NCBI GenBank assembly: GCA_030390025.1
Contig: CM059452.1
Coordinates: 9,052,001 to 9,116,000, forward strand
Direction of reading: 5' to 3'
DNA length: 64,000 nt
From: Squalus acanthias
Taxonomy: Eukaryota
Shown here: positions 16,092 through 62,580 of the stretch, piece after piece
Layout of the letters: every line of letters begins with the position of its first letter
Position numbering within the stretch: position 1 is the first letter of the stretch
Program-made: the position numbers and the translations under genes
Notes under the pieces: model-generated
The model's input: only the letters and a program-made list of their open reading frames with translations
What the model was told of the DNA's origin: nothing
Databases searched by the model: none

Positions 16092-16138
16092 CTGCAATCA
16101 CCGTCACCATGGTGCCTTGTCCCCAGTAGTCGAGGATA
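16092..16138 (-). pseudogene. IGHJ: IgH JH segment lacking its RSS
   Basis: Encodes ILDYWGQGTMVTVIA (WGxG motif) with phase-1 donor GTGAG at 16087-16091; the 5' flank is satellite with no heptamer/nonamer. Confidence 0.9.
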
Positions 16139-16139
16139 G

Positions 16140-16720
16140 ATATGTTAGATATCGAGTAAATCTCCCTCTACACTGTCCCATCAAACACTCCCAGGGCAGG
16201 TACAGTACGGGTTAGAAACAGAGTAAAGCTCCCTCTACATTGTCCCATCAAAAACTCCCAGGGCAGGTACAGCACGGGTTAGAAACAGAGTAAAGCTCGC
16301 TCTACACTGTCCCATCAAACACGCCCAGGGCAGGTACAGCACAGGTTAGATACAGAGTAAAGCACCCTCTACACTGTCCCATCAAACACACCCAGGGCAG
16401 GTACAGCACATGTTAGATATCGAGTAAAGCTCCCTCTAAACTGTCCCATCAAACACTTCCAGGGCAGGTACAGCACGGGTTAGATACAGAGTAAAGGTCC
16501 CTCTTCACTGTCCCATCAAACACTCCCAGGGCAGGGACATCACGGGATAGATGTCTGACACAGATGCACCAGTTAGCACAAACCCTGGGGATGATTCCCA
16601 GAGCCTGGGGCCTATCTGACACAGCCTCTCTCCAGCGTTTAGACAGTATTTGAGGGAGAGGAGATGAGGGATCGGGCGGTGTCCACAGACACATTTGGAG
16701 CCTTCTGCGTCCAGTGGGCA
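16140..16720. repeat. 59-bp satellite array plus attached dispersed-repeat segment
   Basis: About 7 units at 16140-16550; adjacent 16550-16640 matches the reverse complement of 54170-54270. Confidence 0.85.
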
Positions 16721-18614
16721 CAACTAGATAAAGGTTGTGATAAAATCAAATTCTAATGGAATATAATATTACTTTAGTTTAGGCCTAGTGTGCGAGTGGA
16801 GCCCTCCTCTCCGGTGGGCACTAGTGGAATATATTTTTGTTTTGGAATCGCCCCTTTAAAGGAGACCCGAGTTCAATTGGTCCACACAGACCAAAGGAGC
16901 AAAGTAGGCCCAGCACTGGGGTAACCACTTCCAAGCCTTCTTCAATCTCAGCCACACCCATAAACCCTGGCCCTCTGTCTCCTGTTTCCCTGACGGCATT
17001 TCTCCCTGCTCTGCTCCATTCCCTATGACATCATCTCCCTGAGCTCACTGAACATCACCCCAGGGATCCTTTCTCCCTGTTCTTGCTCCATTCCCTCTCA
17101 AAGCATCTACCTGAACTCACTGAACATCACCCCAGGGAGCTTTTCTCCCTGCTTTCCTCCATTCCCTCTCATACCATCGACCTGAACTCACTGAACATCA
17201 CATCCGAGATCCGCAGTGAACTTCAGATCTTTGCTCCCTGTTTCCTTCAACTTTCGCTCCACGTCCTTCACCGTCTCATCAGATTAGTTCGGTGACTGCG
17301 TGCCACATGAACATCTCCAGACGTTTCTGGCCAGGCCCGAGTATCTGCGGTTCTGCTCTTCTTTGGAACTCCTTAAATTCAGGCGTGAGGTCTCCCACAG
17401 TTGAATATGACATCGGGTTAAGAGAGGGAAGAATTAACGGACCGTCTGAAGGGAGATTGGGAATGTATGGAATTGGTGCTTTTACTCCGTCTCTGCCACA
17501 ATCTCTCACCCCTCCCCCTATCCGGGGCCGCCATCCTCTCTAATGTCACCCTCGTCTCACATCCCTGTTCCCAGGCTCTCACTGACTCCGGGCTCGGTGA
17601 TTCTCATGGAGTGCAGTGTCCCTTTAAGAGGCCCCGTGCTGCCCCCGCCCCCTCTTCTGGTAATAGGACTGAGTCAGGTGTCACAGGTGCCACAAACTGG
17701 GGCTCTTTAGCGCTGAGCGGAGGCTGGAGACGCCCCGTGATCTCCTAACCCTAAATCAATGGGGGAAACCGCCAATAACGTTGCTGAAACATGCTTAGGG
17801 ATTATGGCGTCATCAACTGCAGGGCAAACCTGCATTGGCGAAGTTTGTGTGACATACAGTCGGTAGTGTTTGTGTGACGTATAACCGCTGCGCGATTGAA
17901 AAACAAATTTACATCAGTTTCCATCAAAATAAATGCTCGATCTTAATCGAGTAAAGTGAAATTCTGGCACAGGAGAGAATAAAAAAGTTGTCATTAAAAG
18001 GTTTTCTGAGGTGCAAATGTGCGGACAGTTCTCCCAGAATGCAGCGCGGCCCGTGTCACAATGGGCCTTTTACCTGTCGCTGTGAATTGTGGGAGCCGCA
18101 GCCCTTCATGACCGAGTCATTAACTCAGTGAATCCAAACCCAAACTCCTTCAGCCGGGAGCTGGCCGGGTTGTTGGTCCGGACAGACTGCGGGTGTCCTG
18201 TTGAGCGGAGAGAATCTCTGAGCAGATTGGACCCCGAATCCGGGAAATCCCAGGAGGTGGAGACCGCTGATCAACCCAAGCGTTGAAAGACGGATTGAAC
18301 CAAAGAAAAGGAAATATGAAACTCTGCTGGTCCCTGTGAAAACAGGCGGACAATAAATATCCTAGGGTGAAATATCAATCGGCAAAATATAAATGTTTCA
18401 GTTGAGAAAACAATTATTTACACAGAAGGAAGTGAAAATGTGGAATAAATGCATCAAATATTTAAACTGGGGAATTGGATAGGAGACATGAAAGAAGGGA
18501 ATATTAAAGGGTGTGAGGAGCGATAAGAAAAGTGTAGACTTGATGGCCTTAATCAGTTGTTTCAGTAGGGTAAAACTCTAAGATTCGTCTAGAATGCATC
18601 CAAGAAGAATATTT

Positions 18615-20569
18615 TTTCTCTCTCTTCGCGCTCTGTATCACTGTGTGTCTGTAATCCTCACCATGTTCAGGTTTGTGAACTCTCTCCGTGCTCTGCATCA
18701 CTGTGTGTCTGTAATCCTCACCATGTTTAGGTTTGTGAACTATCTCCGTGCTCTGTATCACTGTGTGTCTGTAATCCTCACCATGTTCAGGTTTGTGAAC
18801 TCTCTCCGTGCTCTCTATCACTGTGTGTCTGTAATCCCCACCATGTTCAGGTTTGCGAACTCTCTCCGTGCTCTCTATCATTGTGTGTCTGTAATCCTCA
18901 CCATGTTCAGGTTTGTGAACTCTCTCCGTGCTCTGCATCACTGTGTGTCTGTAATCCTCACCATGTTTAGGTTTGTGAACTATCTCCGTGCTCTGTATCA
19001 CTGTGTGTCTGTAATCCTCACCATGTTCAGGTTTGTGAACTCTCTCCGTGCTCTCTATCACTGTGTGTCTGTAATCCCCACCATGTTCAGGTTTGTGAAC
19101 TCTCTCCGTGCTCTGTATCACTGTGTGTCTGTAATCCCCACCATGTTCAGGTTTGTGAACTCTCTCCGTGCTCTGTATCACTGTGTGTCTGTAATCCCCA
19201 CCATGTTCAGGTTTGTGAACTCTCTCCGTGCTCTGTATCACTGTGTGTCTGTAATCCCCACGATGTTCAGGATTGTGAACTCTCTCCGTGCTCTGTATCA
19301 CTGTGTGTCTGTAATCCCCACCATGTTCAGGTTTGTGAACTCTCTCCGTGCTCTGTATCACTGTGTGTCTGTAATCCCCACCATGTTCAGGTTTGTGAAC
19401 TCTCTCCGTGCTCTGTATCACTGTGTGTCTGTAATCCCCACGATGTTCAGGTTTGTGAACTCTCTCCGTGCTCTGTATCACTGTGTGTCTGTAATCCCCA
19501 CCATGTTCAGGTTTGTGAACTCTCTCCGTGCTCTCTATCACTGTGTGTCTGTAATCCCCACCATGTTCAGGTTTGTGAACTCTCTCCGTGCTCTGTATCA
19601 CTGTGTGTCTGTAATCCTCACCATGTTCAGGTTTGTGAACTCTCTCCGTGCTCTCTATCACTGTGTGTCTGTAATCCCCACCATGTTCAGGTTTGTGAAC
19701 TCTCTCCGTGCTCTGTATCACTGTGTGTCTGTAATCCCCACCATGTTCAGGTTTGTGAACTCTCTCCGTGCTCTCTATCACTGTGTGTCTGTAATCCCCA
19801 CCATGTTCAGGTTTGTGAACTCTCTCCGTGCTCTGTATCACTGTGTGTCTGTAATCCCCACCATGTTCAGGTTTGTGAACTCTCTCCGTGCTCTGTATCA
19901 CTGTGTGTCTGTAATCCCCACCATGTTCAGGTTTGTGAACTCTCTCCGTGCTCTGTATCACTGTGTGTCTGTAATCCTCACCATGTTCAGGTTTTTGTAC
20001 GGCTCTCTCCGTGCTCTGTATCACTGTGTGTCTGTAATCCTCACCATGTTCAGGTTTGTGAACTCTCTCCGTGCTCTGTATCACTGTGTGTCTGTAATCC
20101 CCACCATGTTCAGGTTTGTGAACTCTCTCCGTGCTCTGTATCACTGTGTCTGTAATCCTCACCATGTTCAGGTTTGTGAAGCTCTCTCCGTGCTCTGTAT
20201 CACTGTGTCTGTAATCCCCACCATATTCAGGTTTGTGAACTTTCTCCGTGCTCTGTACCAACTTGTGTCTGTAATCCTCACCATGTTCAGCTTTTTGTAC
20301 GGCTCTCTCCGTGCTCTGTATCACTGTGTGTCTGTAATCCCCACCATGTTCAGGTTTGTGAACTCTCTCCGTGCTCTGTATCACTGTGTCTGTAATCCCC
20401 ACCATGTTCAGGTTTGTGAACTCTCTCCGTGCTCTGTATCACTGTGTGTCTGTAATCCCCACCATGTTCAGGTTTGTGAACTCTCTCCGTGCTCTGTATC
20501 ACTGTGTGTCTGTAATCCCCACCATGTTCAGGTTTTTGTACGGCTCTCTCCGTGCTCTGTATCACTGTG
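18615..20569 (-). repeat. Tandem array of ~33 RSS-derived units (mostly 60 bp, three of 63-bp type)
   Basis: Each unit is CACAGTG + spacer + nonamer-like + 24-nt linker; heptamers counted from 18639 to 20563. Confidence 0.95.
20531..20569 (-). other. 23-RSS of the supporting V-delta
   Basis: CACAGTG (20569-20563), 23-nt spacer, ACAAAAACC (20539-20531): full consensus. Confidence 0.95.
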
Positions 20570-20875
20570 CTGTGCGCGGACTCAGTGCACAGTAATACAC
20601 AGCGGAGTCACTCAGTTGCAGTTTCGCGATGTTTAACCGGCTGATTTTCTGCGCACCATCGACAGAAGCAGAAATTCGGCCCCCGGCAGCGTTTTCTTTA
20701 TTCCCCTCTCCTGAAGTGTGTCTCTGGAGCAGGTATTTCGGAGCCTGCCCTAGGGACTGACGGTACCAGTGTACTGTGTGCTGACAGAACCCTGAATATT
20801 CGCAGCTTAAAGTAACGGTGTCTCCGGCAGCAGAGGATTGTAGAGGCGGACCCTGGGACACCGAGAAACTGGAAT
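20570..20875 (-). CDS. TRDV: NAR-TCR supporting TCR-delta V exon
   Basis: Open V domain TLSCEYSGFCQHTVHWYRQ...DSAVYYCALS with extra CDR1 Cys; ctgcag acceptor; no functional leader; lies downstream of NAR-type V-D-J. Confidence 0.9.
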
Positions 20876-21039
20876 CTGCAGGATTAAAATGGAGAAATGT
20901 TATTTATTTGGCTGCTGTTTACCCGGGGACACTTGTCAATCACAGGAATAGTTCTGCGTCTCGCGGTAATGCTGTGCTTCATTTGAAGCCTGTTCCAACT
21001 TTATTCACTGTCATTGGCAAAAGCACCGGCGTGGGGAGG

Positions 21040-21300: not shown

Positions 21301-21419
21301 TGAATTTCTGGTTTTATTTTTCTTCGTGAAAGATAAACCCGAAAAAATAATAGTAAATTCTCCTCCTCACTGAGACAACCACATTCCAATGATGTTTGAC
21401 CGAGAGTGACCCGGCTTTG

Positions 21420-23808: not shown

Positions 23809-23904
23809 CGGCTGTGACAGTCACCACCGTCCCGGATCCATCCACAGTATCATATTTATAATAACCACAGTGACACCGCTCTCAGTCACCCCGGTACAAG
23901 AACC
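23809..23904 (-). CDS. NAR-TCR J segment (23809-23865) with 23-RSS (23866-23904)
   Basis: YYKYDTVDGSGTVVTVTA, NAR-like GxGTVVTV; GTAAG donor; CACAGTG-23-ACAAGAACC. Confidence 0.9.
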
Positions 23905-24219: not shown

Positions 24220-24288
24220 GGTATTTGCTCAGGTCTCAGCCACTGTGAGGTTCCAGTAAACACAGTGTTTCAAGTCAGCATCAAATCC
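24220..24288 (-). CDS. NAR-TCR D segment (24248-24260, TTTACTGGAACCT) flanked by two 12-RSS
   Basis: ggtatttgc-12-cactgtg and cacagtg-12-atcaaatcc; open in all three frames; satisfies the 12/23 rule with both V and J. Confidence 0.88.
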
Positions 24289-24611: not shown

Positions 24612-25131
24612 AGTTTTTGTATCGCGGGAAGCCGAGGCCCATCACTGTGTAGTTATCATACTTGTACTCAGCTTTACAGTAATAGGTGGCGCTGTCTTCA
24701 ACTCGCACATCCCGAATTTCCAACGAAAATGTCTTTTCTGCCTTATTAGTCCTCACAACAAATCGCTCCTCACTCGAGATCCGCTCCCACTCTGTCCCGG
24801 TCTGGGTTTGTCTGAAGAAATGTCCACTCGTTAAAGGATTAGCATAAAAACCACCATAGAAAACACAGGTGATGGTGAGAGACTGACACTCCTCCCTGGT
24901 CACCGCTGGCGGGGTCTGTACCACTGAATTACTGAAAGAGCCTGGAAATTAAACAGAGAGAGTTTAATGGGCCATCAGAGCCGAACCACACAACGGGGCT
25001 AAAACCCAGAGAGTGTCCGCAATTCGGATGGACCCGGGCAGTTTTACAGTAAATCCACACAATATCGGTTTGTTTGATCGGTACTCACGGGGTAAACAGA
25101 CACACAGGGTGAAAACAAGGAGGATTCCCAT
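24612..25131 (-). CDS. NAR-TCR V gene: leader 25089-25131, V exon 24650-24941, RSS 24612-24649
   Basis: Leader MGILLVFTLCVCLP with GTGAG donor; short NAR-like V lacking a full CDR2 (VTREECQSLTITC...RVEDSATYYCKA) with extra FR1 Cys; CACAGTG-22-ACAAAAACT. Confidence 0.9.
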
Positions 25132-27619: not shown

Positions 27620-28142
27620 GGTTTTTGTACGGGATCCGCTATATCTCTGCAGCAGTGTGGGGCTCATCGCACAGAAATACACGGCGGTGTCGGAGATCAG
27701 GGCTTTGCCGATCGTTAGCTCGGTAATCTTAGTAGTTTCATTAAACGTAGAATTAAATCGATCCGTGAAGTCGGGGTTCCGGTTTCTATCCCTCCGATAA
27801 GACGAATCGCATACTGTGGAGGCTGCCCAAGGTGCTGACTGTACCAGAACACATAAGGGCTTCTGTCGCTTGCTTTTAAGGTGCTGGTTAGGGTGACATT
27901 ACTTTCCTCTTCAACCATCATTTCAGGGACCGGCTGTTCCACTGTGTCTTGGTGGCTCCATTCTAATATAAAATAATTATAATAGTCAGAATCATCATCC
28001 CCTCAACCAACATAATCATCATCATTTGACCAATAATAACATCTGGGATACAGCAGTCAGAGGAGAATGGATGTTTACTGGGAAGGAATTCCTGACCGAG
28101 AAGAGATATAATGATGAGGAGCGGTGCGAGACGGTTCCGCAT
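27620..28142 (-). pseudogene. TCR alpha/delta V pseudogene (leader 28097-28142, V 27660-27962, RSS 27620-27659)
   Basis: Leader MRNRLAPLLIIISLL; first Cys replaced by Ser; frameshift after YAIRL; DTAVYFCAMSP end; CACACTG-24-ACAAAAACC. Confidence 0.85.
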
Positions 28143-28980
28143 GATGTCCCTGAGTCTGTAACTCTGCAGTCCGGGAAATCCTCTGTCGGAGCAGAAATAC
28201 AGATCCCCGCCCCACTGCACTGCTGATCCAACCAATGTCAAACAGGGAACAGCGGCAGCAATCTCTCCAATAACACAGGGCAGGCAAGGTGGGTCAGAGC
28301 GAGGGCAGGAAACGGAAGCTGTGGGCGGTGTGATCACCGTAAGATCCACCTGTGAGGAACTGAATTCAATAATAATGTCCCCTTTGGAAATTATATACCT
28401 CTGTCTCTCTATAAGGGCGGCGTTACTTTCACATTCATTACAAATTCGGGACAAGCAGACTCGCGACAGGAATTGCAGAATTATCATATTATTCAAAAAT
28501 TTACAAAATTTTGTTGTGAATTGGGTTAAAACCAGGGGCTGAAACTAGCGGTGGGAAATAGAGCAAAATTGCAACCGATCCCGAGGTTCTGGAGGCGCAC
28601 ATCTTGTTTCAACTTCACTAACTTCTGAAATCATAAAACTGTAAAGGAATGTATAACATTAATAAACATAAATAATGAGATCAAAAGGAATTTCATGTTA
28701 ATTTATATTGAGGAAGTGTCAGTCAGAATTATTGACGCAAGGTGCCCGGCGGTGGGAATCGGCGCTCTGTCAGCGCCACCTGGTGGCCGAGTTTAAAGCA
28801 GTTTCTTTGAGCTGATCTCACAGATCGCGGTTATTGTACGATGTGTCCCGAAGTCCTTCTCAATGTTGACCTCAGTGCACCGTAGTACACGGCGCTGTCA
28901 GCGAGCCGCAGCTCAGAGGGTGAAAATAGCGATATTTCAGGACGTTTCCAAAATGACAGAGAAACGGTCGTTATCTTTAA

Positions 28981-31450
28981 CACCACTTGGAAGAAGCACT
29001 GAGAGTAGCAAGGGCGCAGAATGTACTCTGGGTGGGGGACTTCAATGTCCATCACCAAGAGTGGCTCGGTAGCACCACTATTGACCGAGCTGGCCGAGTC
29101 CTGAAGGACATAGCTGCCAGTCTGGGCCTGCGACAGGTGGTGAGAGAACCAACACGAGGGAAAAACCTACTTGAGATCGTCCTCACCAATCTATCAGTCG
29201 CGGATGCATCTGTCCATGACAGTATTGGTAGCATGACCATCGCACAGTCATTGTGGAGACGAAGTCCTGTCTTCACACTGAGGATCCCCTCCATCGTGTT
29301 GTGTGGCACTACCACCATGCTAAATGGGATAGATTCAGAACAGATCTAGCAGCTCAAAACTGGGCATCCATGAGGCACTTGGGCCATCAGAAGCAGCAGA
29401 ATTATATTCCAGCACAATCTGTAACCTCATGGCCCGGCATATCCATCACTCTACCATTACCATCAAGCCAGGGAACCAACCCTGGTTCAATAAGGAGTGT
29501 AGAAGAGCATGCCAGGAGCAGCTCTAGGTGACTACATGCATGCTAAAAAGCGGAAGCATCATGCTATAGACAGGGCAAAGCGATCCCACAATCAACGGAT
29601 CAGATCAAAGCTCGGCAGTCCTGCCACATCCAGACGTGAATGGTGGCGGACCATTAAACAACTAACGGGGGGAGGAGGCTCCATGAATATCCCCATCCTC
29701 AATCATGGAGGAGCCCAGCACGTGAGTGCAAAAGACAAGGCTGAAGCGTTTGCAAACATCTTCAGCCAGAAGTGCCGAGTTGATGATCCATATCGGCCTC
29801 CTCCTGAGGTCCCCACCATCACAGAAGCCAGTCTTCAACCAATTCGATTCACTCCACGTGATATCAAGAAACGGCTGAGCGCACTGGATACAGCAAAGGC
29901 TATGGGCCCTGACAACATACCGGTTATCGTGCAGAAGACTTGTGCTCCAGAACTAGCCACGCCTCTAGCCAAGCTGTTCCAGTACAGCTACAATACTGGC
30001 ATCTATCCGACAATGTGGAAAACTGCCCAGGTATGTCCTGTCCACAAAAAGCAGGACAAATCCAATCCGGCCAGTTACCGCCCAATCAGTCTACTCTCAA
30101 TCATCAGCAAAGTGATGGAAGGTGTCATCGACAGTGCTATCAAGCGGCACTTACTCACCAATAACCTGCTCACTGCTGCCCAGTTTGGGTATCGCCAAGA
30201 CCACTCGGCTCCCGACCTCATTAAAGACTTGGTCCAAACATGGACAAAGGAGCTAAATTCCAGAGGTGCGGTGAGAGTGACTGCCCTTGACATCAAGGCA
30301 GCATTTGACCGAGTGTGGCATCAAGGAGCCCGAGTAAAACTGAAGATATTGGGAATCAGGGGGAAAACGCTTCACTGGCTGGAGTCATAACTAGCACAAA
30401 GGAAGATGGTTCTGGCGATTGGAGGTCAATCATCAGAGTCCCAGGACATCGCTGCAGGAGTTCCTCAGGGCAGTGTCCTAGGCCCAACCATCTTCAGCTG
30501 CTTCATCAATGATCTTCCCTCCAACATAAGGTCAGAAATGGGGATGTTCGCTGATGACTGCACAGTGTTCAGTGCCATTCACAATTCCTCAGATAATGAA
30601 GCAGTCCATGCCCGCATGCAACAAGACTTGGAACCCGTTCAGGTTTGGGCTGATAAGTGGCAGGTAACATGCGTGCCACACAAGTGCCAGGCAATGACTA
30701 TCTCCAACAAGCGAGAGTCTAACCATCGCCCCTTGACATTCAACGGCAGTACCATCGCCGAATCCCCCACTATCAACATCCTGGGTGTCACCATTGACCA
30801 GAAACGTAACTGGACCAGCCACATAAATAATGTAGCAACAAGAGCAGGTCAGAGGCTGGGTATTCTGCGGCGAGTGTCTCACCTCCTGACTCCCCAAAGC
30901 CTTTCTACCATCTACAAGGCACAAGTAAGGAGTGTGATGGAATACTCTCCACTTGTCTGGATGAGTGCAGCTCCAACAAGACACAAGAAGCTCGACACCA
31001 TCCAGGACAAAGCAGTCCGCTTGATTGGCACCCCATCCATCACCTTAAACATTCACTCCCTCCACCACCGGCGTACCGTGGCTGCAGTGTGTACCATCTA
31101 CAAGATGCAATGCAGCAACTCGCCAAGGCTTCTTAGGCAGCACCTCCCAAACCCGCGACCTCTTGCACCTGGAAGGAGAAGGACAGCAGGCGCATGGGAA
31201 CACCACCACCTCCAAGTTCCTCTCCAAGTCACACACCATCCTGACTTAGAAGTATATCGCCGATCCTTCATCGTCGCTGGGTCAAAATCCTGGAACTCCC
31301 TACCTAACAGCACTGTGGGATTACCTTCACCACAAGGCCTGCAGCGGTTCAAGAAGGCGGCTCACCACCACCTTCTCAAGGGCAATTAGAGATGGTCAAT
31401 AAATGCTGGACTTGCCAGCGACGCCCACATCTCATAAACGAATAAAAAAA
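28981..31450 (+). mobile_element. 5'-truncated non-LTR retrotransposon (APE-RT), inactivated
   Basis: GDFN, DIKAAFD, GVPQGSVLGP, FADD motifs with stops and frameshifts; A-rich tail; clade not assigned. Confidence 0.9.
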
Positions 31451-31454
31451 ACTT

Positions 31455-32165
31455 AGAGTCATAGAGTCATAACAGCACAGACGGAGGCCACTCGGCCCAT
31501 CGAGTCCGTGCCGGGGCCCTGCAGAGCAATCCAGTCAGTCCCATTCCCCCGCTCTATCCCCGTAGCCCTGCAAGTTTATTTCCCTCAAGTGCCTACCTAG
31601 TCTCCCCTTGAAAACATTGAATGTGTCCGCTTCCGCCACTTCCATCGGCAGCGAGTTCCAGGTCCTCATCACTCGCTGCGTAAAAATGTTTTCCCTCACA
31701 TCCCCCTGAATCTCTTGCCCAAAAGCTTAAATCTGTGTCCCCTAATCCTTGTACCATCAAATAGTGGGAACAGCCTTTCCCCGTCTAGCCTATCCAAACC
31801 CGTCATAATCTTGTACACCTCAATCAAATCACCCCTCCACCTCCTTTGGTCTAATGAAAACAAATCCAGCTTCTCCAACCTGTCCTTGTAGCTAAGATCC
31901 CCCATGCCCGGAATCATTCTGGTAAATCTCCTCTGCACCCTCTCAAGGGCCTTCACATCCTTCCTAAAGTGTGGTGACCAGAACTGGACGCAATACACCA
32001 GTTGTGGCCTAACCAGCGCTTTATAAATATTCAGCATAACTTCTCTACTTTTATACTCAATACCTCTATTTATGAAACCCAAGATCCCATATGCTTTGCT
32101 AACCACTCTCTCAATATGTCCCGCCACCTTCAGGGACCTTTGCACATTAACTCCCAGGTCCCTCA
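31455..32165 (-). mobile_element. CR1-type LINE 3' fragment
   Basis: ORF 31696-32175 LVRPQLVYCVQFWSPHFRKD. Confidence 0.85.
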
Positions 32166-32389
32166 CCCTTTCCAAAGGAATGTGTCTGAATTACGACAGT
32201 GGGAGCCTTGTTCTGGCTCTGAGGGTAAAGCTCCAGGTAATAGCTTGCTAGGGATGTTGAATGACTACAATTAATGCTCATTGAGGTTTCTTCCACAGAT
32301 TGGGCTTCGATTGGCCACTGCTCAACTGAGTCTCCAGAACTCAGTCCTGCAGAAAACATTCCTGGTTACCCATGGAAACAGAATGAAAA

Positions 32390-32612: not shown

Positions 32613-32854
32613 CATAGCTCGGCATGGAAAGAATTTGTAGGGAGACATCAGTAATTGGTCCACAACTAACACTGATTGGTGCACAGCTGGTATCAGTTCT
32701 GAGAGACCAGCCAATCCTGTCCCTGGGAAACGCCCCTCAGTTTCCTAATCAGTGAATCTTGCCCCTGATCTGAGTTTACTCGTTAATATCAGACTAGAAG
32801 GTCAACATATTTAACGCGTGCTGCTATTTTCTGTCGAATTCTAAACCAGACAAC

Positions 32855-33332
32855 ATGTGCTCCCCATGTTCTTTACTGATAATAATTGTCGTGCTGTCCG
32901 GTGAGTACATGTTTAATGGGTCAGTGTGTGTTCCATGGCTTTTATTTATTCCCAGACTTATCACACATTCTGTATTTTTTTTGCAGGAACGCGTGGCAAA
33001 GACTCAGTGTCCCAGGATCCGCCTGAATTAATGGCTCAGGAAGGACAGACCATAATACTGAACTGTAGTTACTCGGCAGAGTACACTGGTTCAACTCTCT
33101 TCTGGAACATCCAGTATCCCGGGGAAGCTCCTAGATATTTACTGAAGCGATATAGCTCGGTGTCGGGAGACAAGTCTCCAGATTTCCCAGACCGGTTCTC
33201 TGCTGACTTGGACGCAGACAAGAAAACGGTTCCTTTAAATGTCTCCGGGGCGCTTGTCTCTGTCTCTACCGTGTATTTCTGTGCGCTGAACCTCACACTG
33301 TTACAGGGGCGCAGTCAGTCCGTTCAAAACCA
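32855..33332 (+). CDS. TCR alpha/delta V gene, open frame (leader 32855-32900, V 32987-33293, RSS 33294-33332)
   Basis: Leader MCSPCSLLIIIVVLS with GTGAG; KDSVSQDP...LNCSY...LFWNIQ...VYFCALN; CACACTG-23-TCAAAACCA (weak nonamer); conserved Asp before YFC replaced by Val. Confidence 0.85.
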
Positions 33333-36327: not shown

Positions 36328-36823
36328 ATGCGGCTATTCAGCGCCTGGGTTGTGTTTATGGTGTTTATTGTCGGTAAGGATGAATCGAATCAATTCGTTT
36401 TCAAACCAAAGTGTTAATATTATTTCAGCTTTTAATGCTCGGTCTTATCTTGTTACTGAACACATGTTACAGATCAGAGTGATGGAGATTCTGTTACTCA
36501 GTCCCAGACTTCAGTCAGCAGCAGAGAAGGTGAAGCGCTGACTATAAGATGTACCGACAGTACCACAGCCAGCAGCTATTATTTATATTGGTACCGGCAC
36601 CAACCAGAGAAGGAGCCCCAGTTTGTAATCAGCAGACGGTCTTGGGACGCACGTGAACTGAGAGGAGAAGGTTTCGGAATCCGTTTCTCTGCTGAGCTCC
36701 AGACCTCGACTAAACTCACCAGTTTAACCATCTCTGGGCTGCAGCTGACTGACGCTGCCGTGTATTACTGCGCTCTCTGGGACTCACAGTGATGGAAAGC
36801 AGTCTCAGCCCTGCACAAAAACT
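36328..36823 (+). CDS. TCR alpha/delta V gene, intact (leader 36328-36373, V 36473-36784, RSS 36785-36823)
   Basis: Leader MRLFSAWVVFMVFIV with GTAAG; GDSVTQSQ...TIRCTDSTTASSYYLYWYRH...LQLTDAAVYYCALWD (not in ORF track); CACAGTG-23-ACAAAAACT. Confidence 0.93.
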
Positions 36824-39914: not shown

Positions 39915-40420
39915 AGTTTTTGTACGAGAGGAGAACTAGGTTATATCACTGTGTCGAAGCGATGGGGCGAATCCACAGATGTACAGCGCCGTGTCACTAA
40001 GCTGGAGATCAGTGACGGTTAAAATAGACAATCTTGAGGATGTGTTTAATTCAGAAGTGAAGCGATTCCCAATATTTTTTGCTTTTCCCCGACTGTTGCT
40101 GGAACTTCTCCACACGATCATCTCCGGGGGTGTATCGGGATACTTTCGGTACCAGTACAGGTCGTACCGGCCTGCTGTTGTCGAATAGCTACATTGCGTT
40201 CTGAAAGTCTGTCCCATTTTCAGGACTACAGCCGACCAATCCTGAGACACAGAATCTCCCTGACTCAGATCTGGTGGAAAGATTGAAAGTATTGATTCGA
40301 GTTTAATTGTGGATTTAATAAGAACTTGTGCTTGACAAATGTTTGTACTATAACATCCTTTAAAAACTTACCAAATGTTAAGCAGGTGAGGGTACTCAAA
40401 AGGGTGAATTTGAAATGCAT
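39915..40420 (-). CDS. TCR alpha/delta V gene, intact (leader 40372-40420, V 39954-40270, RSS 39915-39953)
   Basis: Leader MHFKFTLLSTLTCLTF with GTAAG; GDSVSQ...QCSYSTT...LYWYRK...DTALYICGFAPSLR; CACAGTG-23-ACAAAAACT. Confidence 0.92.
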
Positions 40421-42443: not shown

Positions 42444-42795
42444 ATGTGCTCCCCATGTTCCGCACTGATATTAGTGGTCGTGCTGCCCGGTGAGTCTATG
42501 TTTAAAGGAACGTATGTATTTCATGGGTTATATTTACTCCCAGACTTTTGACAGATTATGCATTTTGTTGCACTGGCGAAGCCTCATTAACACATGATCC
42601 ATCTGATTTAACGGTTCAGGAAGGACAGATCTTAATACTGAACACTAGTTACTCCACGCCGATAGATTTCCCTTCCTCTTCTGGTACAACCAGTAGCCCC
42701 GGGGATGATCCGAGATAATTAATGAGGAGATACATCTCGGTGCAGGGAGACAAGTCTCCAGATTTCCCAGAGCGGTTCAAAGGCACAGACACGAA
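42444..42795 (+). pseudogene. Decayed, 3'-truncated TCR V pseudogene (family of 32855 and 46383)
   Basis: Leader MCSPCSALILVVVLP with GTGAG; remnant ggagacaagtctccagatttcccaga; indels; no RSS. Confidence 0.8.
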
Positions 42796-42911: not shown

Positions 42912-43443
42912 GGTTTTTGTACCGGGCCTTTGCTTTTTCTGACGCTGTGCCTCACTGCACAGTAATAGACCGCCCCGTCCTCCACACTCAGGCTGCTTAT
43001 ATTGAGGTAATTGTACTTTCTAGACGTGTTAGCAGCCGCCAGATATTGTCCTGAGATTTCGACTCCCTTCAGTGCTACTGTTTTGCTAATTATCCAGCTT
43101 GGAGGCTGTGCCAGTTTCTGCCGATATCATTGCATGTAGTCAATATCCGGGCTTTTATATTCGCAATCTAACTGCACCGAACCCTCTGTTGACACGGCGA
43201 TTGTCACCGGAAACTGAGTTACTGGATCTACACATAGTCCGCCTGAGAACATAGGGGAACTTGTGTCTATCTGTATGAGAGTGTGTAACCCTCCATCTAC
43301 GCAGCTGTCCATCATGTGGATATTTCTGATCGGTAATTGTACTAAATCCCTGCACACGCTCTTTGCATCAACCAGCTAACCTGTGTTTTTAATATAATCC
43401 AATACTTACTGTTCAACACAGCCGCCAGTATTATTAGAAACAT
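42912..43443 (-). pseudogene. TCR alpha-like V pseudogene (leader 43410-43443, V 42950-43242, RSS 42912-42949)
   Basis: VQLDCEYKSPDIDYMQ*YRQ...EDGAVYYCAVR: conserved Trp codon changed to TGA; CACAGCG-22-ACAAAAACC. Confidence 0.87.
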
Positions 43444-44319: not shown

Positions 44320-44599
44320 CCCTTATAAATAATTAAAGGTGCTCCATTTAGTGTCATAGCTACAGTTTAAAGTCACCGCGTCTCCTTCTGTCTGAACTCC
44401 CGAGGACAGCGGCTGAGTGACAGAATCTCCAAGACTCAGATCTGAAAAACATGTTCAAACAGGAAAAGATCAGACCGGCGGGTGTTTAAAATTCAGAGTC
44501 ACACCATGTTTGGAAATGAGAGAAAAGATGAAATGTCTTTCCTCCACAATTACCTGTCAGAAATGCTCCCCACACAGCCCAGATGCTGAGTAGCCGCAT
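44320..44599 (-). pseudogene. Truncated TCR V pseudogene (leader 44554-44599, V from 44441)
   Basis: Leader MRLLSIWAVWGAFLT; GDSVTQPLSSGVQTEGDAVTLNCSYDTKWSTFNYL* followed by unrelated sequence. Confidence 0.8.
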
Positions 44600-45149
44600 T
44601 GTCGCTGTCCGCTCTGTAAAAGGGGGGGTCGGATATTTGAAGACACCCGTTCTAATCCCCGCCCTCAATAATCAGCTGTCGTGTCTCAGGATGCTCTCAC
44701 CTCACTTCTTGGTGTCCCCAGTGGTGCTGTGAGACCGGTAGGTGGTGAGTTGGCTGCCAGTGAATGGAAACATCCCGAGCTGGGCCACAGTTCGTGCCCT
44801 TATATTGGAATGGTTCCGCTTTTAGAGACCGGGGGTGGGAATGAAACTCTTGCCTGGTTATTGGAACCCGGAAGCTGAGGGATTGTTAATGGTGACGGAA
44901 AATATTCCAGCATTAAAGAGACATTCTGAAGGGCAATGGACATTGGGGGAACTCTGTGCTTGGGGCCTGTTTTAAAGAGCACAATCACTACCTTGTGAAA
45001 TCTGTTCATTGTGTATAAACTGTCTCTGACCCAGCAACATACTCTGATCAAATAAACCCTGTGTACAGACCGCGAACAAAGGGTCCGGGACACTGACAGG
45101 GGAGATGAGTAAAGGGCTGCACAATATTGCAGGCAGGCACGGAATGGGC

Positions 45150-45912: not shown

Positions 45913-46383
45913 GGTTTTTGTACGGGATCCGCTATATCTCTGCAGCAGTGTGGGGCTCATGGCACAGAAATACACGGCGCTGTCGGTGACAAGAACCGCG
46001 GTGATATTTAAAGGGACCGTTTTGCTGTCTCTGTGCAAAACAGCAGAAAACCGGGCTGGGAAATCTGGAGACTGGTCTACCGTCCCCGAGCTATATATCC
46101 TCAGTAAATATCTGGGAGCTTCCCGGGATACTGGATGAACCAGAACAGAGTTGGAGCAGCTGCCGAGTAACTGCAGTTCAGTATTATGCTTTTTCCATCC
46201 TGAACCATTAATTCAGACGGATCCTGGGACACTGAATCTTTGCCACTCGTTCCTGTAACAAAACACAGAATGTGTCAAAAGTCTGGGAGTAAGGATAATC
46301 CGTGAAACACACAATGACCATTTACATATGAACTCACTGGACAGCACGACCATTATTATCAGTATGGAACACGGGGAGCACAT
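45913..46383 (-). pseudogene. TCR V pseudogene with a 1-nt deletion (leader 46338-46383, V 45953-46252, RSS 45913-45952)
   Basis: KDSVSQDPSEL...LNCSY...LFWFIQYPG then frameshift relative to the 32987 paralog; DSAVYFCAMSP; CACACTG-24-ACAAAAACC. Confidence 0.87.
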
Positions 46384-51008: not shown

Positions 51009-51029
51009 TATATGTAGATTAAAATCACT

Positions 51030-51598: not shown

Positions 51599-51599
51599 T

Positions 51600-51745
51600 C
51601 ATTCTGTTTCCATGGGAAACCAGGAATGTTTTCTGCAGAACTGAGTTCTGGAGACTCCTTCAAGCAGTGGCCAACAGAAGCCCAATATCTGGAAGGAACC
51701 TCAATGAGCATAAATTGTAACTTTTCAACGTCCCTAGTGTACCAA
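51600..51745 (+). pseudogene. 5' fragment of a TCR V (paralog of the 32349 V)
   Basis: Acceptor ttttctgcag then LSSGDSFKQWPTEAQYLEGTSMSINCNFSTSL; abuts V 3'-flank sequence. Confidence 0.8.
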
Positions 51746-54169
51746 AACGCCCACTGAGAGGGCGCTCTCACACCGATAACCAGAAGCAATAATTCAGCCT
51801 CCACAGTGAGAGTCACACGGACCTCCTTAAAAGTACAAAAAAACACAGCACTCAACAAGAACAGGTGAGGTCCCCTGGCCGAATTATATTAGTTAGTTGT
51901 GATTTCAACTCGCATTTATACTAAAAATGAACTTCAGCAATCATGTCTGTGGTTCCACAACTCACCTTTTGTCTTTTGATGTAATTTCCGGGCCTGCCTG
52001 TCTCTTCTCATCCCTTGTCTCCACTCTTTACTAATCGTATGGACTTTCTTCTTCCAGTCTTTAGTTTAACGATATAAAACCTTTACTGCTGCATGGCATA
52101 TTAATTCAGAACCGCTCTAACCCAGCTTCCCATAAACAGGAACTGCAGACAGGTCAGTGAATAATGTTAAGATCAGCTCCGAGAAAGAGGTTGCTGACAG
52201 GGCCAGGAACCTCCTGCTGGTCGCTCCGTTAATGGGACAGGATCTGGTTCCCATATTCTGCCTGTGTGTGTTATTTCATCTCGTGTATTCCTTCAAAACC
52301 AATACTTAATGTATTGGGGTGCTCGGGAAATCCTCCGACCCATTACTCTATTTTAGTTTCACTATATTTAGATGACACTTTCCAAGCTTGAAAACAGAGG
52401 TGTTGGAAACCCACAACCGAATGGGAGAGGACATGAAAGAGAAAATTAGTTGAATGTTTCGGGAGATCTGTGGAGAAAATAGAGAGATTTCTGATCTCTT
52501 TCGCTATTCTTGCTGTTCCGGTCACTGGTTGCCTCATTGAACTTCCGTGCGTCAGTTAACCTGCAATAAATCTGACCAAGTGCTATTGGCCTGTAAGGAG
52601 AACTCTGACTGTGTGGCAGTTTCCCCGAGGGAGGCTGTAATAAATTGCTATTCAGTGGTTCAGTTGGCTCACACCCTGTCAGTGATTTAAGCAGCCATGA
52701 AGGACAGTGATTCCCACAATGCACAGCTGGCCAGAATAGGCCCAATGTTGACCACGGGCCGTGCTGCTCCCTGGGAGCACTGTTCGCACATGCGCAACTC
52801 GCCAACCGCTTCAATTATTGTTGTCTGTATCTTTATTTCTGTCTCATATTTTCTCCTTTTTATTAAGAAAGGGAGACCGTTTCTTTTGTGGGAATTGAAG
52901 TCACACGTCACACCGCACGTCACACAAACATGGCCGTCACCGCTTTGCCCTGCACTGGATGACGCCACAATGCTTTTCGCATGTCACAGCACCGCGATTG
53001 GCTGTTTTTCACATTCATTGAGGGTCAGAGGTCACGGGCAGTCTCCAGGCTCCGGTCAGCGCTAAAGATTCCGCGTGTGTGCAGCCTATGACCCCTGACC
53101 CAGGGCTGTGACCCTGGGGGGTCAGCTCGGAAAGTCTTCAATGGGCCCTGCACCACCCGATATTCTCGGAGCCTGGGGACAGGATACAGAGCCGGCAGAG
53201 ACAGCAATGGTGGCTGAAGGTATTTGTCGCTTTGAGGGGAGGGAGAGAAATTGGGGCAGAGACATAGTTTAAACAGCAACTCCATCCATTTGCAATGTTC
53301 CTTCTCAGCCCTTCAGAAGGGCCGCCTAATTCATCCGTTCCTCAACCTGATCATATATTCAACCACAGGAGACCTCGCGCCTGGACTCCAGGAGCTCAGA
53401 GGGAAAGCAGCACTGCATCAAAAGGAGAATGCCAGAAGATACTCGGGTCTGGCCAGAAACCTCTGGAGATGTTCCCGGGGCGGGGAGGCATCGAAAGAGC
53501 CCGAGGATCCGGTTAAGGACGTGGAGCAAAACTACAGGGAAACAGGGATCAGAGATCTGAAGGTCACTGGCGGTACACAGTAGTGATGTTCACTGAGTTC
53601 ATGGAGATGGTACAAGAGGGAATGGAGCAGAGCAGGGAGAAAGGTCGTCAGGGATACAGGAGACAGATGGTCAGGGTAAATGGGTGTGGCTCAGATTGGA
53701 GAAGGGTTGGAAGTGGTTACCCCAGTGCTGGGCCTACTCTTTCATTGGTCTGTGTGGACCATTTGGACTCGGGACTCCATTAAAGGGTCTAATCCAAAAC
53801 AAAAAATACATTCTATAGCGCCCTCCCCGAGAGGAGGGCTACACTCGCTCACTTGGCCTGAACAAAACTAGAACGATATTCCATCAGAATTTGATTTTGT
53901 CCGACTGTCACACAACCTGTGTCCAGCAGTGACCAAATATACCTGAGGACACCGCGTGATCCTAATCCCCTCTCCCTCAAATACAATCTCTCCTTCTTTC
54001 CTCTCTGCCCTGGGTGTCTGTGTGCGTATACACCAGAATAGGTGGAGAGAAAGAGTGAATGTGTAACAGGGAAGTTCGAGAGTCTGTGTTTATAACAGAG
54101 AAGTTGGAAACAGAATCTCTGTGTTTATAACAGTAAAGTGAAGAGTGCCTGAGTGTGTATAACAGAAAA

Positions 54170-54455
54170 GCTGGAGAGAGAGCCTGTGTGCCGGATAGGC
54201 CCCAGACTCTGAGAATCATTTCCAGGGTTTGTGCTCCCCAGTGTGTCTGTGTCAGATATCTAACAAGTGTGCAGCTGCCGTGGGAGTGTTTGATGGGACA
54301 GTGTAGAGGGAGCTTTACTCTGTATCTAACCCATGCTGTACCTGCCCTGGGAGTGTTTGATGGGACAGTGTAGAGGGAGCTTTACTCTGTATCTAACAAG
54401 TGTGTACCTGCTCTGGAAGTGTTTGATGGGACAGTGTAGAGGGAGATTTACTCTG
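54170..54455. repeat. Inverted copy of the 59-bp satellite plus attached segment
   Basis: gggagtgtttgatgggacagtgtagagggagctttactctgtatctaac x3. Confidence 0.85.
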
Positions 54456-55298: not shown

Positions 55299-55307
55299 TC
55301 ACTTGAT
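55299..55307 (-). CDS. IGHM: IgM TM2 exon coding part (IK*)
   Basis: ttttacag|ATC AAG TGA, 140 nt downstream of the TM1 donor. Confidence 0.85.
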   Translation of the reverse strand: MK

Positions 55308-55447
55308 CTGTAAAAGAGGGATAAAAGAATGAAGCAGAGATTTAGTGGTTTGGGGCATTTATCTCAGGGTTTTTATCAATGAAACTTTTAGAGATTTGTC
55401 AAACCGCTTCAGTCAGATCGAAGTGTGAGTGGATTGAATCTTCTCAC

Positions 55448-55575
55448 CTTCACTAGAGTGACGGCAGCGCTGTAGGCCATGCTCAGGAAGAACAGGATGA
55501 TGAATGTGGAAGCGGTTGTCCAGATGTTGCCGCTCTCTTCCTCATAGTCTTCAATCAAGATGTGGTCTGAGGAAT
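55448..55575 (-). CDS. IGHM: IgM TM1 exon
   Basis: DSSDHILIEDYEEESGNIWTTASTFIILFFLSMAYSAAVTLVK (CART motif); cgtag acceptor, GTGAG donor. Confidence 0.95.
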
Positions 55576-57304: not shown

Positions 57305-58462
57305 CCTCCCCTCTCTCTGGTGGGGGAGTGGGGGGTACAGTGGCTTCACAATTACCCTTTCCCCTCTCTGGTGGGGGAGTGGGGGTACAGTGGGTTAACA
57401 ATTACCCTTTCCCCTCTCTGGTGGGGGAGTGGGGGGTACAGTGGGTTAACATTGCCCTTTCCCCTCTCTGGTGGGGGAGTGGGGGTACAGTGGGTTAACA
57501 ATTGCCCTTTCCCCTCTCTCTGGTGGGGGAGTGGGGGGTACAGTGGGTTAACAATTGCCCTTTCCCCTCTCTCTGGTGGGGGAGTGGGGGTACAGTGGGT
57601 TAACAATTGTCCCTTTCCCCTCTCTCTTGTGGGGGAGTGGGGGTACAGTGGGTTAACAATTGCCCTTTCCCCTCTCTCTGGTGGGGGAGTGGGGGGTACA
57701 GTAGGTTAACAATTGCCCTTTCCCCTCTCTCTGGTGGGGGAGTGGGGGTACAGTTGGTTAACAATTACCCTTTCCCCTCTCTCTGGTGGGGGAGTGGGGG
57801 TACAGTTGGTTAACAATTGCCCTCTCCCCTCTCTCTGGTGGGGGAGTGGAGGTACAGTGGGTTAACAATTACCCTTTCCCCTCTCTCTGGTGGGGGAGTG
57901 GGGGTACAGTGGGTTAACAATTGCCCTCTCCCCTCTCTCTGGTGGGGGAGAGGGGGGTACAGTGGGTTAACAATTGCTGAGATGAGGAGGAACTACTTCA
58001 CTCAGAGGGTGGTAGGTCCATGGAATATGCTGCCACAAAAAGCTGTAGAAGCTACATCATTAAATAAATTTAAAACAGAAATAGACAGTTTCCTAGAAGT
58101 AAAGGGCATTAAGGGTTACGGGGAGCGGGCAGGAATTTGGACATGAGTCTAGGTTCGGATCGGTCATGGCCCTGTGGGTAGTGGAGCGGGCCCAGGGACC
58201 GTGTAGCCTGATTCTGCTCCTATTTCGTGTGTGCAATTCTGTTAGATGCAGGAGATGGTTCTGTGATAGTAGATAGTAGATTGGCGGTTAGGATCAGATC
58301 AGCCATGATCTTATTGAATGGCGGAGCAGGCTCGAGGGGCCGATTGGCCTACTCCTGCTCCTATTTCTTATGTTCTTTCCCCTCTCTCTGGTGGGGGAGT
58401 GGAGGTACAGTGGGTTAACAATTACCCTTTCCCCTCTCTCTGGTGGGGGAGTGGGGGTACAG
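57305..58462. repeat. ~52-bp G-rich minisatellite interrupted by a CR1 3' end (57977-58376)
   Basis: Unit tggtgggggagtggggggtacagtgggttaacaattgccctttcccctctctc; units resume after the CR1 tail. Confidence 0.9.
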
Positions 58463-58894: not shown

Positions 58895-59286
58895 TCATTG
58901 ACAAGAATTAACGGTGTCCATCAGAACAAGGGAAATGTTGACAAAACTGGGTTTACCGCTGGATTTATTAACCGTTCTGTTGATGATCTTCAAGGGGATC
59001 GCTTCATGTCCCACCACACAGGAGTAAGAAGCGCCGCTGGCCCACTCCTCCGCTGCAATGGATAACAGGCTGTACATGAAGAAGGAACTGCTGCCGTTCT
59101 CCGCCATCACCTCGGTGTTCTTGTAGTTGCCGGAATTCACCGGCTTGTCATTGACGGTCCACTTGACGAAGATCTCTCGGGGGGAGAAACCTCTCACTAA
59201 GCAGGTGAGGCTGACGAACCTCTGAGCGGAGACTTCTTCTGCCGGGGGCAGGAGGACAGACACGGACGGTTCCCGTGGATGTTTAG
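58895..59286 (-). CDS. IGHM: IgM CH4 + secretory tailpiece exon (cluster 2)
   Basis: Intact C1-set domain and tail ...DTVNSCQ; acceptor ctgcag; AATAAA at ~58851-58866. Confidence 0.96.
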
Positions 59287-59805: not shown

Positions 59806-60114
59806 CTTTTTCCTTGTGGATGGAATCTCTTATAGGAGTCGGCATATCCTGATGGCTCACCACGCAGTAGAACTCATCCCCACTCAGCCAGGCTTGTGTC
59901 GAGATGTTTAAGTTGCTGATCACGCTGTTGGGAGCCTCTCCGGGTTGGACGGCAATCTCTGATTTCAAAGTCTCCTTTTCTCGGGTCCAGGACACGTTGA
60001 CTCCATAAGGAGCATTAGACACGACGCAGGTTAAGGTCACCGTCGCCTCCAGTAAGACCTGTTCTAGTGACGGTTGCGGAAGAGTGATTTCTGGATCGTT
60101 GCATGAGGAACCAT
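59806..60114 (-). CDS. IGHM: IgM CH3 exon
   Basis: [43 protein letters not shown]...FYCVVSHQD; 309 nt, AG/GT boundaries. Confidence 0.95.
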
Positions 60115-60814
60115 CTGTGAACAGAAATGAAAGTCAAGCAAAGCTTCATCTTCAGAATCAGGACACCAGTATTCAGCCTTCACTCTCTCAGGGAGAATAA
60201 ATCACCTTTGAGATATTAACCTCTCGTTGTTGCTTAAACACCATCGTTATTGGAAGGACAACGAATTGACAACGATTCCGGGAGACTCTTTAACATTTCC
60301 TGTGTATTTGCTCCCAGAGCCTCCTGTAATGGGCTGTGAAGCAAATACCCGGCGTAAAAAATGAATAAATTCGGGCGCAATTGTGTTACGCACTGAATAG
60401 CGCTCTTCCTGAAATCCCTTGCTCCTTTACGCCCGTCTATAGATCCTTGTGCCCGAACGCATTCCCGCTCATTATAATGGCTCCGCCCCCAGGGTCAAGA
60501 GCTCTACACGAAAATTACACTGGTTCAAAACGAGTGTCAAATGAAATCCAGGATTTTAGGTGCAACAGGAAACAAAGTTAATTTTCTGGTGTCTTGTTGC
60601 GATTTTGGGGCGATGAAAATGTGCAGGAACCAGTTGCAGCCCCTGTCAGAGGAGAAGTGAAAGGTCGGGAGAATGGAGTTCCAAGGGGTCTTTGTGGTGG
60701 TGAATAATGTGTAATGCCGATGTGAAGTAGTTTCTTCATCTCTGTCATTAGTGAGCACTTAACATGTCTGGTGAGAGAGAGTCAGAAGGAAATATGACCG
60801 CAGGGCAGTAATAA

Positions 60815-61360
60815 CAACATGGGAACAGGAGTAGGCCATTCGGCCCATCCAGCCTGTTCCGCCATTCAATGAGATCATGGCTGATCTACACCTCAACACC
60901 ATCTACCCGCCTTGTTTCTGTAACCCTTGATACCCTTGCCTTACAAAAATCTATCAATCGCAGTTTTGAAATTTTCCGTTGACCCCCAGCCTCAACAGCT
61001 TTTGGGGGAGAGAGTTCCAGATTTCCACTGTCCTTTGTGTGAAGAAGTGCTTCCTGACATCACCGCTGAACGGCTCGGTTCTAATTTTAAGGTTATGCTC
61101 CTTGTTCTGGACTCCCGCACCAGAGGAAATAGTTTCTCTCTATCTCCCCTATCAATTCCATTTATCAACTTAAACACCTCAATTAGATCACCTCTTAATC
61201 TTCTATACTCAAAGGAATACAAGCCTATTCTGTGCAACCTCTCCTCATAATTTAACCATTTTAGCCCTGGTACGTTTCGGGTGAATTTGCGTTGCATCCC
61301 CTCTAAAGCCAATATATCCATCCTGATGTGTGGTGCCCAGAATTGAACGCAGTTCTCTAA
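60815..61360 (-). mobile_element. CR1-type LINE 3' fragment
   Basis: DILALEGMQRKFTR...NYEERL...RLRGDLIEVFK. Confidence 0.85.
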
Positions 61361-61544
61361 ATAGGGAAGATGTCCTTTCTAGCAGTGCGCCCCGAGACAG
61401 TTACCAGTAAAGGGTTCCAGACACCTACTGTCGCTCCGAATATGATCAGCCAACTCAGGATTAACCTGAGACCAAGGACACCTCATGCACTCTCTGACAT
61501 CAGAGCAGAGGGAAACCTTCTTTGGCGAGGTTATGGAATCCTGA

Positions 61545-61970
61545 GCCATGAGGAATCCTGATTCAGAGGATCGTGGGTTCAAGTCGCACTCCAGATACTT
61601 GAACACAAAATGTGAGCTGACACTCCCAGTGCAGCACTGAGGGAGCGCTGCATTGTCGTCTTCTGGATCAGACGTTAAACCGACGTCTGCTCTCTCAGTT
61701 GGACATAAACGATCCCATGGCTCTATTTGGAGGAAGAGCGGGGCAGTTCTCCCAGGTGGCCTGGCCAATACCTATCCATCACCAAATAATAAGATTATCT
61801 GGTCATTATTACATTGCTGTTTGTGGGACCTTACTGTCTGCAAATTGGCCGCCGCGATTTCTACATTACAACAGTGACCACATTTCAGGAAGTACTTCCT
61901 TGGCAGTAAAGCGCTTTGGGACGTCCAGAGGTCGGGAAAGGCGCTATGTAAAGGCAGTTCTTTCTTTTAT
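61545..61970 (+). mobile_element. tRNA-derived SINE (same family as 26335-26770)
   Basis: B-box-like gggttcaagtc, shared core and tail gtaaagcgctttgggacgtcc. Confidence 0.7.
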
Positions 61971-62268
61971 TTTATATCGGAAGAAAACACAAACAGCATG
62001 ATTGTAAATTAGAAATAGAGCTTTCTCAGGGTAAACCTGAGACTGAGGACACCTCACTCACTGACATCACAGCTGAGGGAAATCTTTGCCGAAGTGCTGG
62101 AATCCTGAACCGTGAGGAACCCTGAGTCAGCACTGACATCGGAAGGAAACACACACTGTGTGATTGGAAATTAGAAATATTTCTGTGCTTTTTACGAATT
62201 CCAATAAAATTGCTGGCAGAGATCAGCGGTCAGAATGGTCTGGGACTTCTCGGGATTGTGTCTCTTAC

Positions 62269-62580
62269 CCGGAGATCTGGAAATGTTTCGGCTTTGGGTG
62301 ACCCCTTGATGAGAGACCTGGCAGGTATAGACCGAGCCAGCGAACCATTCCCCGGCGGGGAATGTCAGCCGACTGGTCGCCGAGAAGTTCCCGTTCACTT
62401 CAAAGACGGGAGAGGTGACGAAGCCCGAATCCATGAGTTGTCCATTCTTCAGCCAATTCACGGTCATTGAGTTTGGACGGAAATCGATGATTGAACACAC
62501 GGCGGTTGCAGACCTGCTGCTGATGATTTCTTCACTGGAACTCAGGGTGAGGATCACAGTTGGATGATGTACCACACGAT
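62269..62580 (-). CDS. IGHM: IgM CH2 exon
   Basis: [12 protein letters not shown]...[23 protein letters not shown]...YTCQVSHQG; 312 nt, AG/GT boundaries. Confidence 0.95.

Follow-up and report, generated by a model that had tools for sequence, protein, structure and literature searches.

Anatomy of the window

A 64,000-nt stretch of Squalus acanthias DNA (the window; its scaffold is designated C29) was annotated by a six-frame scan and by scans for recombination signal sequences (RSSs) that used consensus heptamer and nonamer motifs. Both ends were found to carry shark-type IgM constant exons, with V-set exons in between. [quoted passage not shown] As a layout it is one more, dense instance of a published antigen receptor complex (AgRC), and its main point and the cis inference taken up below are already in print.

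Between the IgM transmembrane (TM) exons at about 55.3 kb and the heavy-chain J segment (JH) at 16.1 kb lie 13 TCR-type V genes or fragments, against the roughly 12 claimed in a first-pass annotation of this DNA. Five are open and carry an RSS (the NAR V, its supporting V and the conventional genes V33.0, V36.5 and V40.1), and 8 are frameshifted, stopped or truncated, leaving 3 open and 8 broken conventional V genes, which occur on both strands. The same annotation had placed these genes between two IgM clusters with full constant exons on either side and within a few kb of them. Only the right cluster proved to be complete, the left unit keeping no more than CH4 and TM and lacking VH, D, a JH RSS and CH1-CH3. 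The proximity was borne out only for one fragment of a V, at 3.6 kb from TM2, and for the supporting V, 4.4 kb from the dead JH; the nearest open conventional V lies about 15 kb from the TM exons. The conventional V genes and fragments are as follows.

27660..28141, minus strand, TCR alpha/delta V pseudogene with a frameshift
28860..28930, minus strand, TCR V 3' fragment
32165..32350, minus strand, TCR V 5' fragment, interrupted by sequence like a long interspersed nuclear element (LINE)
32854..33296, plus strand, V33.0, TCR alpha/delta V with leader, open frame and a weaker 23-RSS
36328..36784, plus strand, V36.5, TCR alpha/delta V with leader, open frame and a good 23-RSS
39954..40419, minus strand, V40.1, TCR alpha/delta V with leader, open frame and a good 23-RSS
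42445..42790, plus strand, TCR V pseudogene, frameshifted and truncated
42950..43443, minus strand, TCR V pseudogene with an in-frame stop
44335..44600, minus strand, TCR V leader and 5' fragment
45953..46382, minus strand, TCR V pseudogene with a frameshift
51637..51740, plus strand, TCR V 5' fragment, the V piece closest to the right IgM

A V-gene tree of 42 rows was built with six window V genes included, all of which fell outside the VH clade (support 99/97), the deep branches among the TCR V genes being weak. Within it, the NAR V grouped with the NAR-TCR V genes of Mustelus and Cetorhinus (100/97) as sister to IgNAR V, and the supporting V grouped with the supporting V genes of the same two sharks (97/100). 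The tree, together with PDB searches, classes the V genes as of TCR rather than IgH type, and the open TCR alpha/delta V genes consist of a V-set exon with a leader and a 23-RSS.

The NAR-TCR cassette

A complete NAR-TCR cassette lies entirely on the minus strand, in the order leader, V, D, J and then a supporting V-delta 2.9 kb past the NAR J.

24650..25131, minus strand, NAR-TCR leader (25089-25131) and V exon (24650-24941) with open frame, 22-RSS and A-B loop Cys, lacking the WYRQ tryptophan
24248..24260, minus strand, NAR-TCR D, 13 nt, with a 12-RSS on each side
23809..23865, minus strand, NAR-TCR J with a 23-RSS and a donor of phase 1 that is in frame with the acceptor of the supporting V
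20570..20875, minus strand, supporting V-delta, leaderless, with open frame, a Cys in complementarity-determining region 1 (CDR1) and a perfect 23-RSS

The cassette's own signals, 22 / 12-D-12 / 23, are compatible with the 12/23 rule, and the best PDB matches of its V are shark VNAR domains. Three sets of features mark it as NAR-TCR: a leader-bearing NAR-type V with kinship to IgNAR V, the A-B loop Cys and no WYRK Trp; a D and J of its own; and a leaderless supporting V-delta with the CDR1 Cys that splices in frame to the NAR J. In published passages on the NAR-TCR of cartilaginous fish, a TCR-delta that rearranges doubly, the receptor is likewise described as a leader-bearing NAR V followed by a leaderless supporting V-delta, each with separate V(D)J signals (PMC1845163), and the A-B loop Cys, the missing WYRK tryptophan and the CDR1 Cys of the supporting V-delta are shared as well (PMC1845163, PMC5931798). 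The Squalus system differs in that its supporting V trails a 32-unit RSS ladder and in that 10 of the 22 NAR cassettes on C29 are joined in the germ line (5 VDJ, 4 VD, 1 DJ); the cassette of the window is not joined.

Several other cassettes on C29 depart from the simple plan. At 9032.3-9032.8 kb, 20 kb left of the window, there is a germline-joined, in-frame NAR-TCR VDJ that retains its leader intron and whose junction is unlike those of four other joined copies. Four tandem cassettes (loci L022, L028, L031 and L034) consist of a split NAR V-D-J, then a germline-joined NAR VDJ and then a supporting V, and their splice phases would allow a delta chain with three V domains. An NAR V-D-J at 7698-7699 kb had no supporting V within the 8 kb read downstream, and a broken NAR V with a germline-joined D-J stands at 9343-9344.5 kb.

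The right IgM cluster

The right IgM unit enters the window on the minus strand and continues past its end, where CH1, JH, D2, D1, VH and leader follow intact at 0.3-10.6 kb.

55299..55575, minus strand, right IgM TM1 (55448-55575) and TM2
58895-59286, 59806-60114 and 62269-62580, minus strand, right IgM CH4, CH3 and CH2

It is a full L-VH-D-D-JH-CH1-CH4-TM unit with signals (V 23 / 12 D1 22 / 12 D2 12 / 23 J) and open frames, and its in silico splice yields an open secreted mu chain. The V-D1-D2-J signals, CH1-CH4, the secretory tail and two TM exons are those of the elasmobranch IgM minicluster (V-D-D-J-C), of which there are also germline-joined forms; the left unit is no such cluster, and the right one differs in its VH. 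This VH (C29 9126.1 kb) is of IgW type, grouping with IgW V genes (100/99), at 69% identity to Heterodontus IgW W26, and apart from the other IgM VH family of the array. At least seven further VH genes of the IgW-type family were found on C29. A leader-VH-D1-D2 stretch at C29 5801.7-5802.9 kb, 96-98% identical to the upstream region of the right cluster, stops at a 500-N gap and is either a paralogue or a second haplotype.

Recurrence of the pattern along the scaffold

Gene counts on C29 come from genome searches and refer to the matches listed, so they are lower bounds. Between 5.97 and 10.29 Mb, at least 28 IgM CH2 exons, at least 22 NAR V genes, at least 16 supporting V genes and at least 97 conventional V genes were found. 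Among the same matches, TCR-type V genes are contained in 26 of the 27 CH2-to-CH2 intervals over 4.3 Mb, and NAR V genes in 15 of the 27. Within the window, the DNA between the last V fragment and the TM exons is 82-92% identical to a paralogue 90-97 kb leftward, and parts of the array are repeated on several small contigs. Segmental duplication together with inversion is the likely way in which the array was multiplied.

Germline joining is also common among the IgM units. Eight of the 28 VH-bearing units read on C29 are fully split, and the other 20 show partial or full pre-joining: D-J is pre-joined beside a free V in 2, V to D1 in 3, VDD (with a 12-RSS) in 8 and VDJ in 7.

TCR constant genes and possible joining between Ig and TCR segments

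When the genome was searched with a C-delta-type query, matches were obtained on contig C911 alone. This separate contig of 864 kb has no assembled join to C29; V genes of the same families are present on it, as are IgM exons. Its gene order, based on 240 kb of the 864 kb, is IgM CH1-TM, TCR V genes, VH-like V genes with 23-RSSs, one D (12/23), at least 15 J segments, a first C, more J segments and a second C; because of this order, the two are called C-delta and C-alpha. At 377-520 kb, about 20 VH-like V genes with 23-RSSs, all on one strand and of the TAILV or Ig-TCR-delta V type, lie just upstream of the single D-delta. An intact VH lies in the right flank of the window, and the D-delta, J and C-delta genes lie on C911. 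IgM and IgNAR are found on the TCR alpha/delta V chromosome, as in the AgRC, the V and C exons of IgNAR type lying at 17.1 Mb of C29. The AgRC linkage group also includes IgW, PSMB5 and UrIg2; here, IgW-type clusters were located on the unplaced contig C284.

A join of C911 to C29 at the 5.803-Mb gap, where VH-D1-D2 ends and to which the CH1 at the start of C911 would fit, was considered as a candidate placement; the pairing was not singled out by identity, and the orientation conflicts with the stingray order. PSMB5 was sought as an anchor, and none of 21 proteasome-family matches lay on C29 or C911.

A 23-RSS accompanies the right VH, and the signal on the 5' side of the single D-delta is a 12-RSS. 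Joining of VH to D-delta in cis would fit the 12/23 rule, and hybrid rearrangement along the chromosome is likely to be possible. The same rule implies that only 13 of the 28 VH-bearing units (the split, free-V and V-D1-joined ones) could reach D-delta. The earlier proposal that this layout permits cis rearrangement between Ig and TCR segments is compatible with these signals, except at the left IgM, which has no V, D or JH RSS to join, and the C-delta gene lies on an unjoined contig.

From established shark immunogenetics, the right IgM would be expected to rearrange within its own cluster in B cells, and NAR V-D-J to join inside the 1.3-kb cassette in T cells. The supporting V would join a distant D-delta/J-delta, and splicing would then produce V(NAR)-V(delta)-C-delta, a delta chain with two V domains. 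Conventional V genes would join D-delta/J-delta or J-alpha, by deletion or inversion depending on strand, and the right VH, with its free 23-RSS, could join D-delta in cis, a route that has been put forward in the literature for IgHV-TCR-delta chains.

Traffic in the other direction appears unlikely. In such routine two-way recombination between Ig and TCR, the plus-strand genes V33.0 and V36.5 would invert onto a D of the right cluster and be expressed on C-mu; V36.5 is indeed an intact gene with a good 23-RSS, situated 37 kb downstream of D1 (5' 12-RSS) and oriented for inversion. This support is one of geometry, however, and shark IgH joining takes place mostly within one cluster. The published passages give IgM or IgW V genes on TCR-delta D-J-C, not TCR V genes on C-mu.

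The left headless IgM relic

What survives of this IgM is a dead remnant, without VH or D and without the set of four CH exons. What lies upstream of its JH is an inverted IgM 3' flank, and satellite DNA takes the place of the JH RSS.

364..755, minus strand, CH4 and secretory tail of the left relic, with TM1 2.7 kb left of the window
1149..1150, no strand assigned, deletion junction taking out CH1-CH3, common to two other C29 copies
16092..16135, minus strand, left JH without RSS and without its first four coding bases, fused to a 67-bp satellite and retaining its splice donor
16144..17853, no strand assigned, 67-bp satellite and inverted copy of the IgM TM 3' flank, homologous to 52919-54455

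Genome-wide, this assembly has exactly five exact copies of the satellite-JH junction, every one of them on the strand of a supporting V and 2.7-4.5 kb behind it; for the other 11 of 16 supporting V genes, the 13-30 kb read contained no such JH. Because the break sits four bases from the JH coding border, a germ-line RAG cut is suggested, this being a post hoc reading of a single event, and no cryptic RSS was seen on inspection by eye of the satellite at the break. Three of the five headless copies share the CH1-CH3 deletion, one is frameshifted in CH3 and one has open CH exons behind a frameshifted NAR V. None is intact in both halves, and so there is no intact template for an NAR-V/C-mu chain among them. 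A plausible history is that a break at the JH coding border, likely made by RAG in the germ line, fused headless C-mu behind an NAR cassette, after which the unit would have been copied five times, with three copies later coming to share the CH1-CH3 deletion.

It is very unlikely that the NAR cassette and the headless IgM form a working unit, in which NAR V-D-J would be spliced to C-mu to give an IgM-type chain with a single V domain, the transfer proposed for the origin of IgNAR. The regular placing of all five RSS-less JH junctions behind supporting V genes, the retention of CH1-CH4 in two of the five copies, the shared phase 1 of the NAR J donor and all CH acceptors, and the proposal, in passages of PMC12227049, that an NAR-TCR V was transferred to an Ig cluster would all be in keeping with such a unit. 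Yet no examined copy has both halves intact, the acceptor of the supporting V intervenes and is followed by an in-frame stop, and most supporting V genes lack the JH in the 13-30 kb read. There is a similarly slim chance that the RAG-grafted five-copy unit once was, or still is, read as an NAR-V/C-mu heavy chain; if so, the transfer put forward for IgNAR's origin would have been caught in the act a second time.

Soundness of the assembly and of the repeat-unit interpretation

The window contains no N bases, and there is no gap over 219 kb, from 100 kb to its left to 55 kb to its right; two N runs were met in 1.21 Mb sampled on C29. A misjoin of Ig and TCR contigs is unlikely because no gap is nearby and because the adjacency recurs across megabases, in nearly every CH2 interval. 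That the interleaving as a whole is an artefact of contigs fused via shared satellites and LINEs is extremely improbable: 67-bp, 52-bp and 60-bp tandem repeats and LINE pieces do abound in the region and scaffold gaps adjoin satellite blocks, but the window and its surroundings are gap-free, the pattern is also seen on further contigs and in the assemblies of other species, and the junction paralogues are 82-94% identical, a divergence that a misjoin does not yield.

A repeat unit of a rearranging array is the preferred interpretation, and five points weigh against it. The small contigs that duplicate parts of the array may be second haplotypes, which copy counts could include. No independent sample was seen to span any junction of the window. 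Duplication is judged from shared junctions and exon identities of 90-100% rather than from a phylogeny of entire units with dates. C-delta sits on a contig unjoined to C29, so cis linkage here rests on synteny with other species. Finally, no listed sequencing run is recorded as RNA, and four possible RNA runs gave no spliced or rearranged transcripts, yielding at the NAR cassette only low-depth unspliced pieces and repeat noise, which are evidence neither way.

An RSS ladder behind the supporting V

Directly behind the supporting V lies a tandem array derived from its RSS.

18620..20569, minus strand, RSS ladder of about 32 head-to-tail units of 60-63 bp

Each unit comprises a heptamer, a spacer, a nonamer and 24 bp of flank, and the ladder holds 31 perfect heptamers, 3 full signals with a 23-bp spacer and 25 with a 20-bp spacer. 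In the DNA fetched, a repeat of this type stands behind all 16 supporting V genes (3-97 units each) and behind none of 35 other TCR V, 19 VH-type and 13 NAR V genes. Gene models of other sharks and a sawfish (Hemiscyllium, Rhincodon, Pristis and Pristiophorus) have read-through tails whose match to the translation of the unit is above 200 shuffles each, and several of these tails extend into another unit. Of the 71 tails listed, most end at the heptamer and are hence uninformative on the ladder. The first heptamer holds an in-frame stop, which would make joins to distal units non-productive. The ladder may aid RAG in finding the supporting V, or it may merely ride along. No paper describing the ladder or the cassette-plus-headless-IgM unit was found in the literature searched, which did not include several central earlier papers that may describe the ladder or germline-joined NAR-TCR.

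Relation to published receptor complexes

Passages of PMC12227049 (Flajnik et al. 2025) describe TCR alpha/delta V exons between IgH clusters, a proximity taken to back VH-to-D-delta rearrangement, and Table S1 of that paper lists the interleaving in great white shark and stingray. For great white chromosome 27, its entries over 9 Mb are IgM, 'IgM (missing V)', TCRa/dV and NARTCR V-V in alternation, and 'NARTCR V(gj)V(gi)V' is present as well; the gene order on stingray chromosome 26 is the same as on C911. Linkage of Ig and TCR in elephant shark appears in part of PMC3964593, and chimeric IgHV-TCR-delta chains are summarized in part of PMC5931798.

As far as those passages of PMC12227049 go, the Squalus array shares with the AgRC its alternation of IgM miniclusters, V genes of TCR alpha/delta type and paired NARTCR V-V genes, its V-less or pseudogene IgM units, IgNAR further along the chromosome and VH-like V genes before C-delta. 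It is denser: its 4.3 Mb hold at least 28 CH2 exons, and the great white table has about 10 IgM entries over 9 Mb, although that table consists of gene models and method may account for part of the difference. Neither the RSS ladder nor the cassette-plus-headless-IgM unit is present in the parts of PMC12227049 compared. The free-23-RSS VH, the 5' 12-RSS of D-delta and the VH-like V genes upstream of D-delta have counterparts in what excerpts of PMC12227049 and PMC5931798 report on nurse shark IgHV-TCR-delta chains and TAILV; the window itself has no TAILV-type V.

This genome adds a dense example at base level together with the RSS ladder and the cassette-plus-headless-IgM unit. The layout turns the old 'trans-rearrangement' of shark VH to TCR-delta into a testable cis event: from the free signal of each cluster's VH (23-type, 12-type or none) one can predict whether that VH could reach D-delta, and compare the outcome with repertoire data. 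It also indicates that, in the germ line, Ig parts were copied, broken and re-joined along with TCR parts.

Mobile elements and tandem repeats

A LINE-type open frame of 812 aa (endonuclease and reverse transcriptase) occupies 6386-8821, inside the JH-CH intron of the left relic, and a LINE-type reverse transcriptase fragment lies at 30391-31386. At 11107-12926, a fragment with a weak GIY-YIG match stands beside a frame resembling reverse transcriptase, which we take to be, probably, a Penelope-type element. Tandem repeats of 67, 52 and 38 bp occur in or beside the IgM units (5353-5838, 16144-16552, 54257-54455, 57307-57977 and 63159-64000), and the 67-bp repeat also makes up long blocks close to scaffold gaps.

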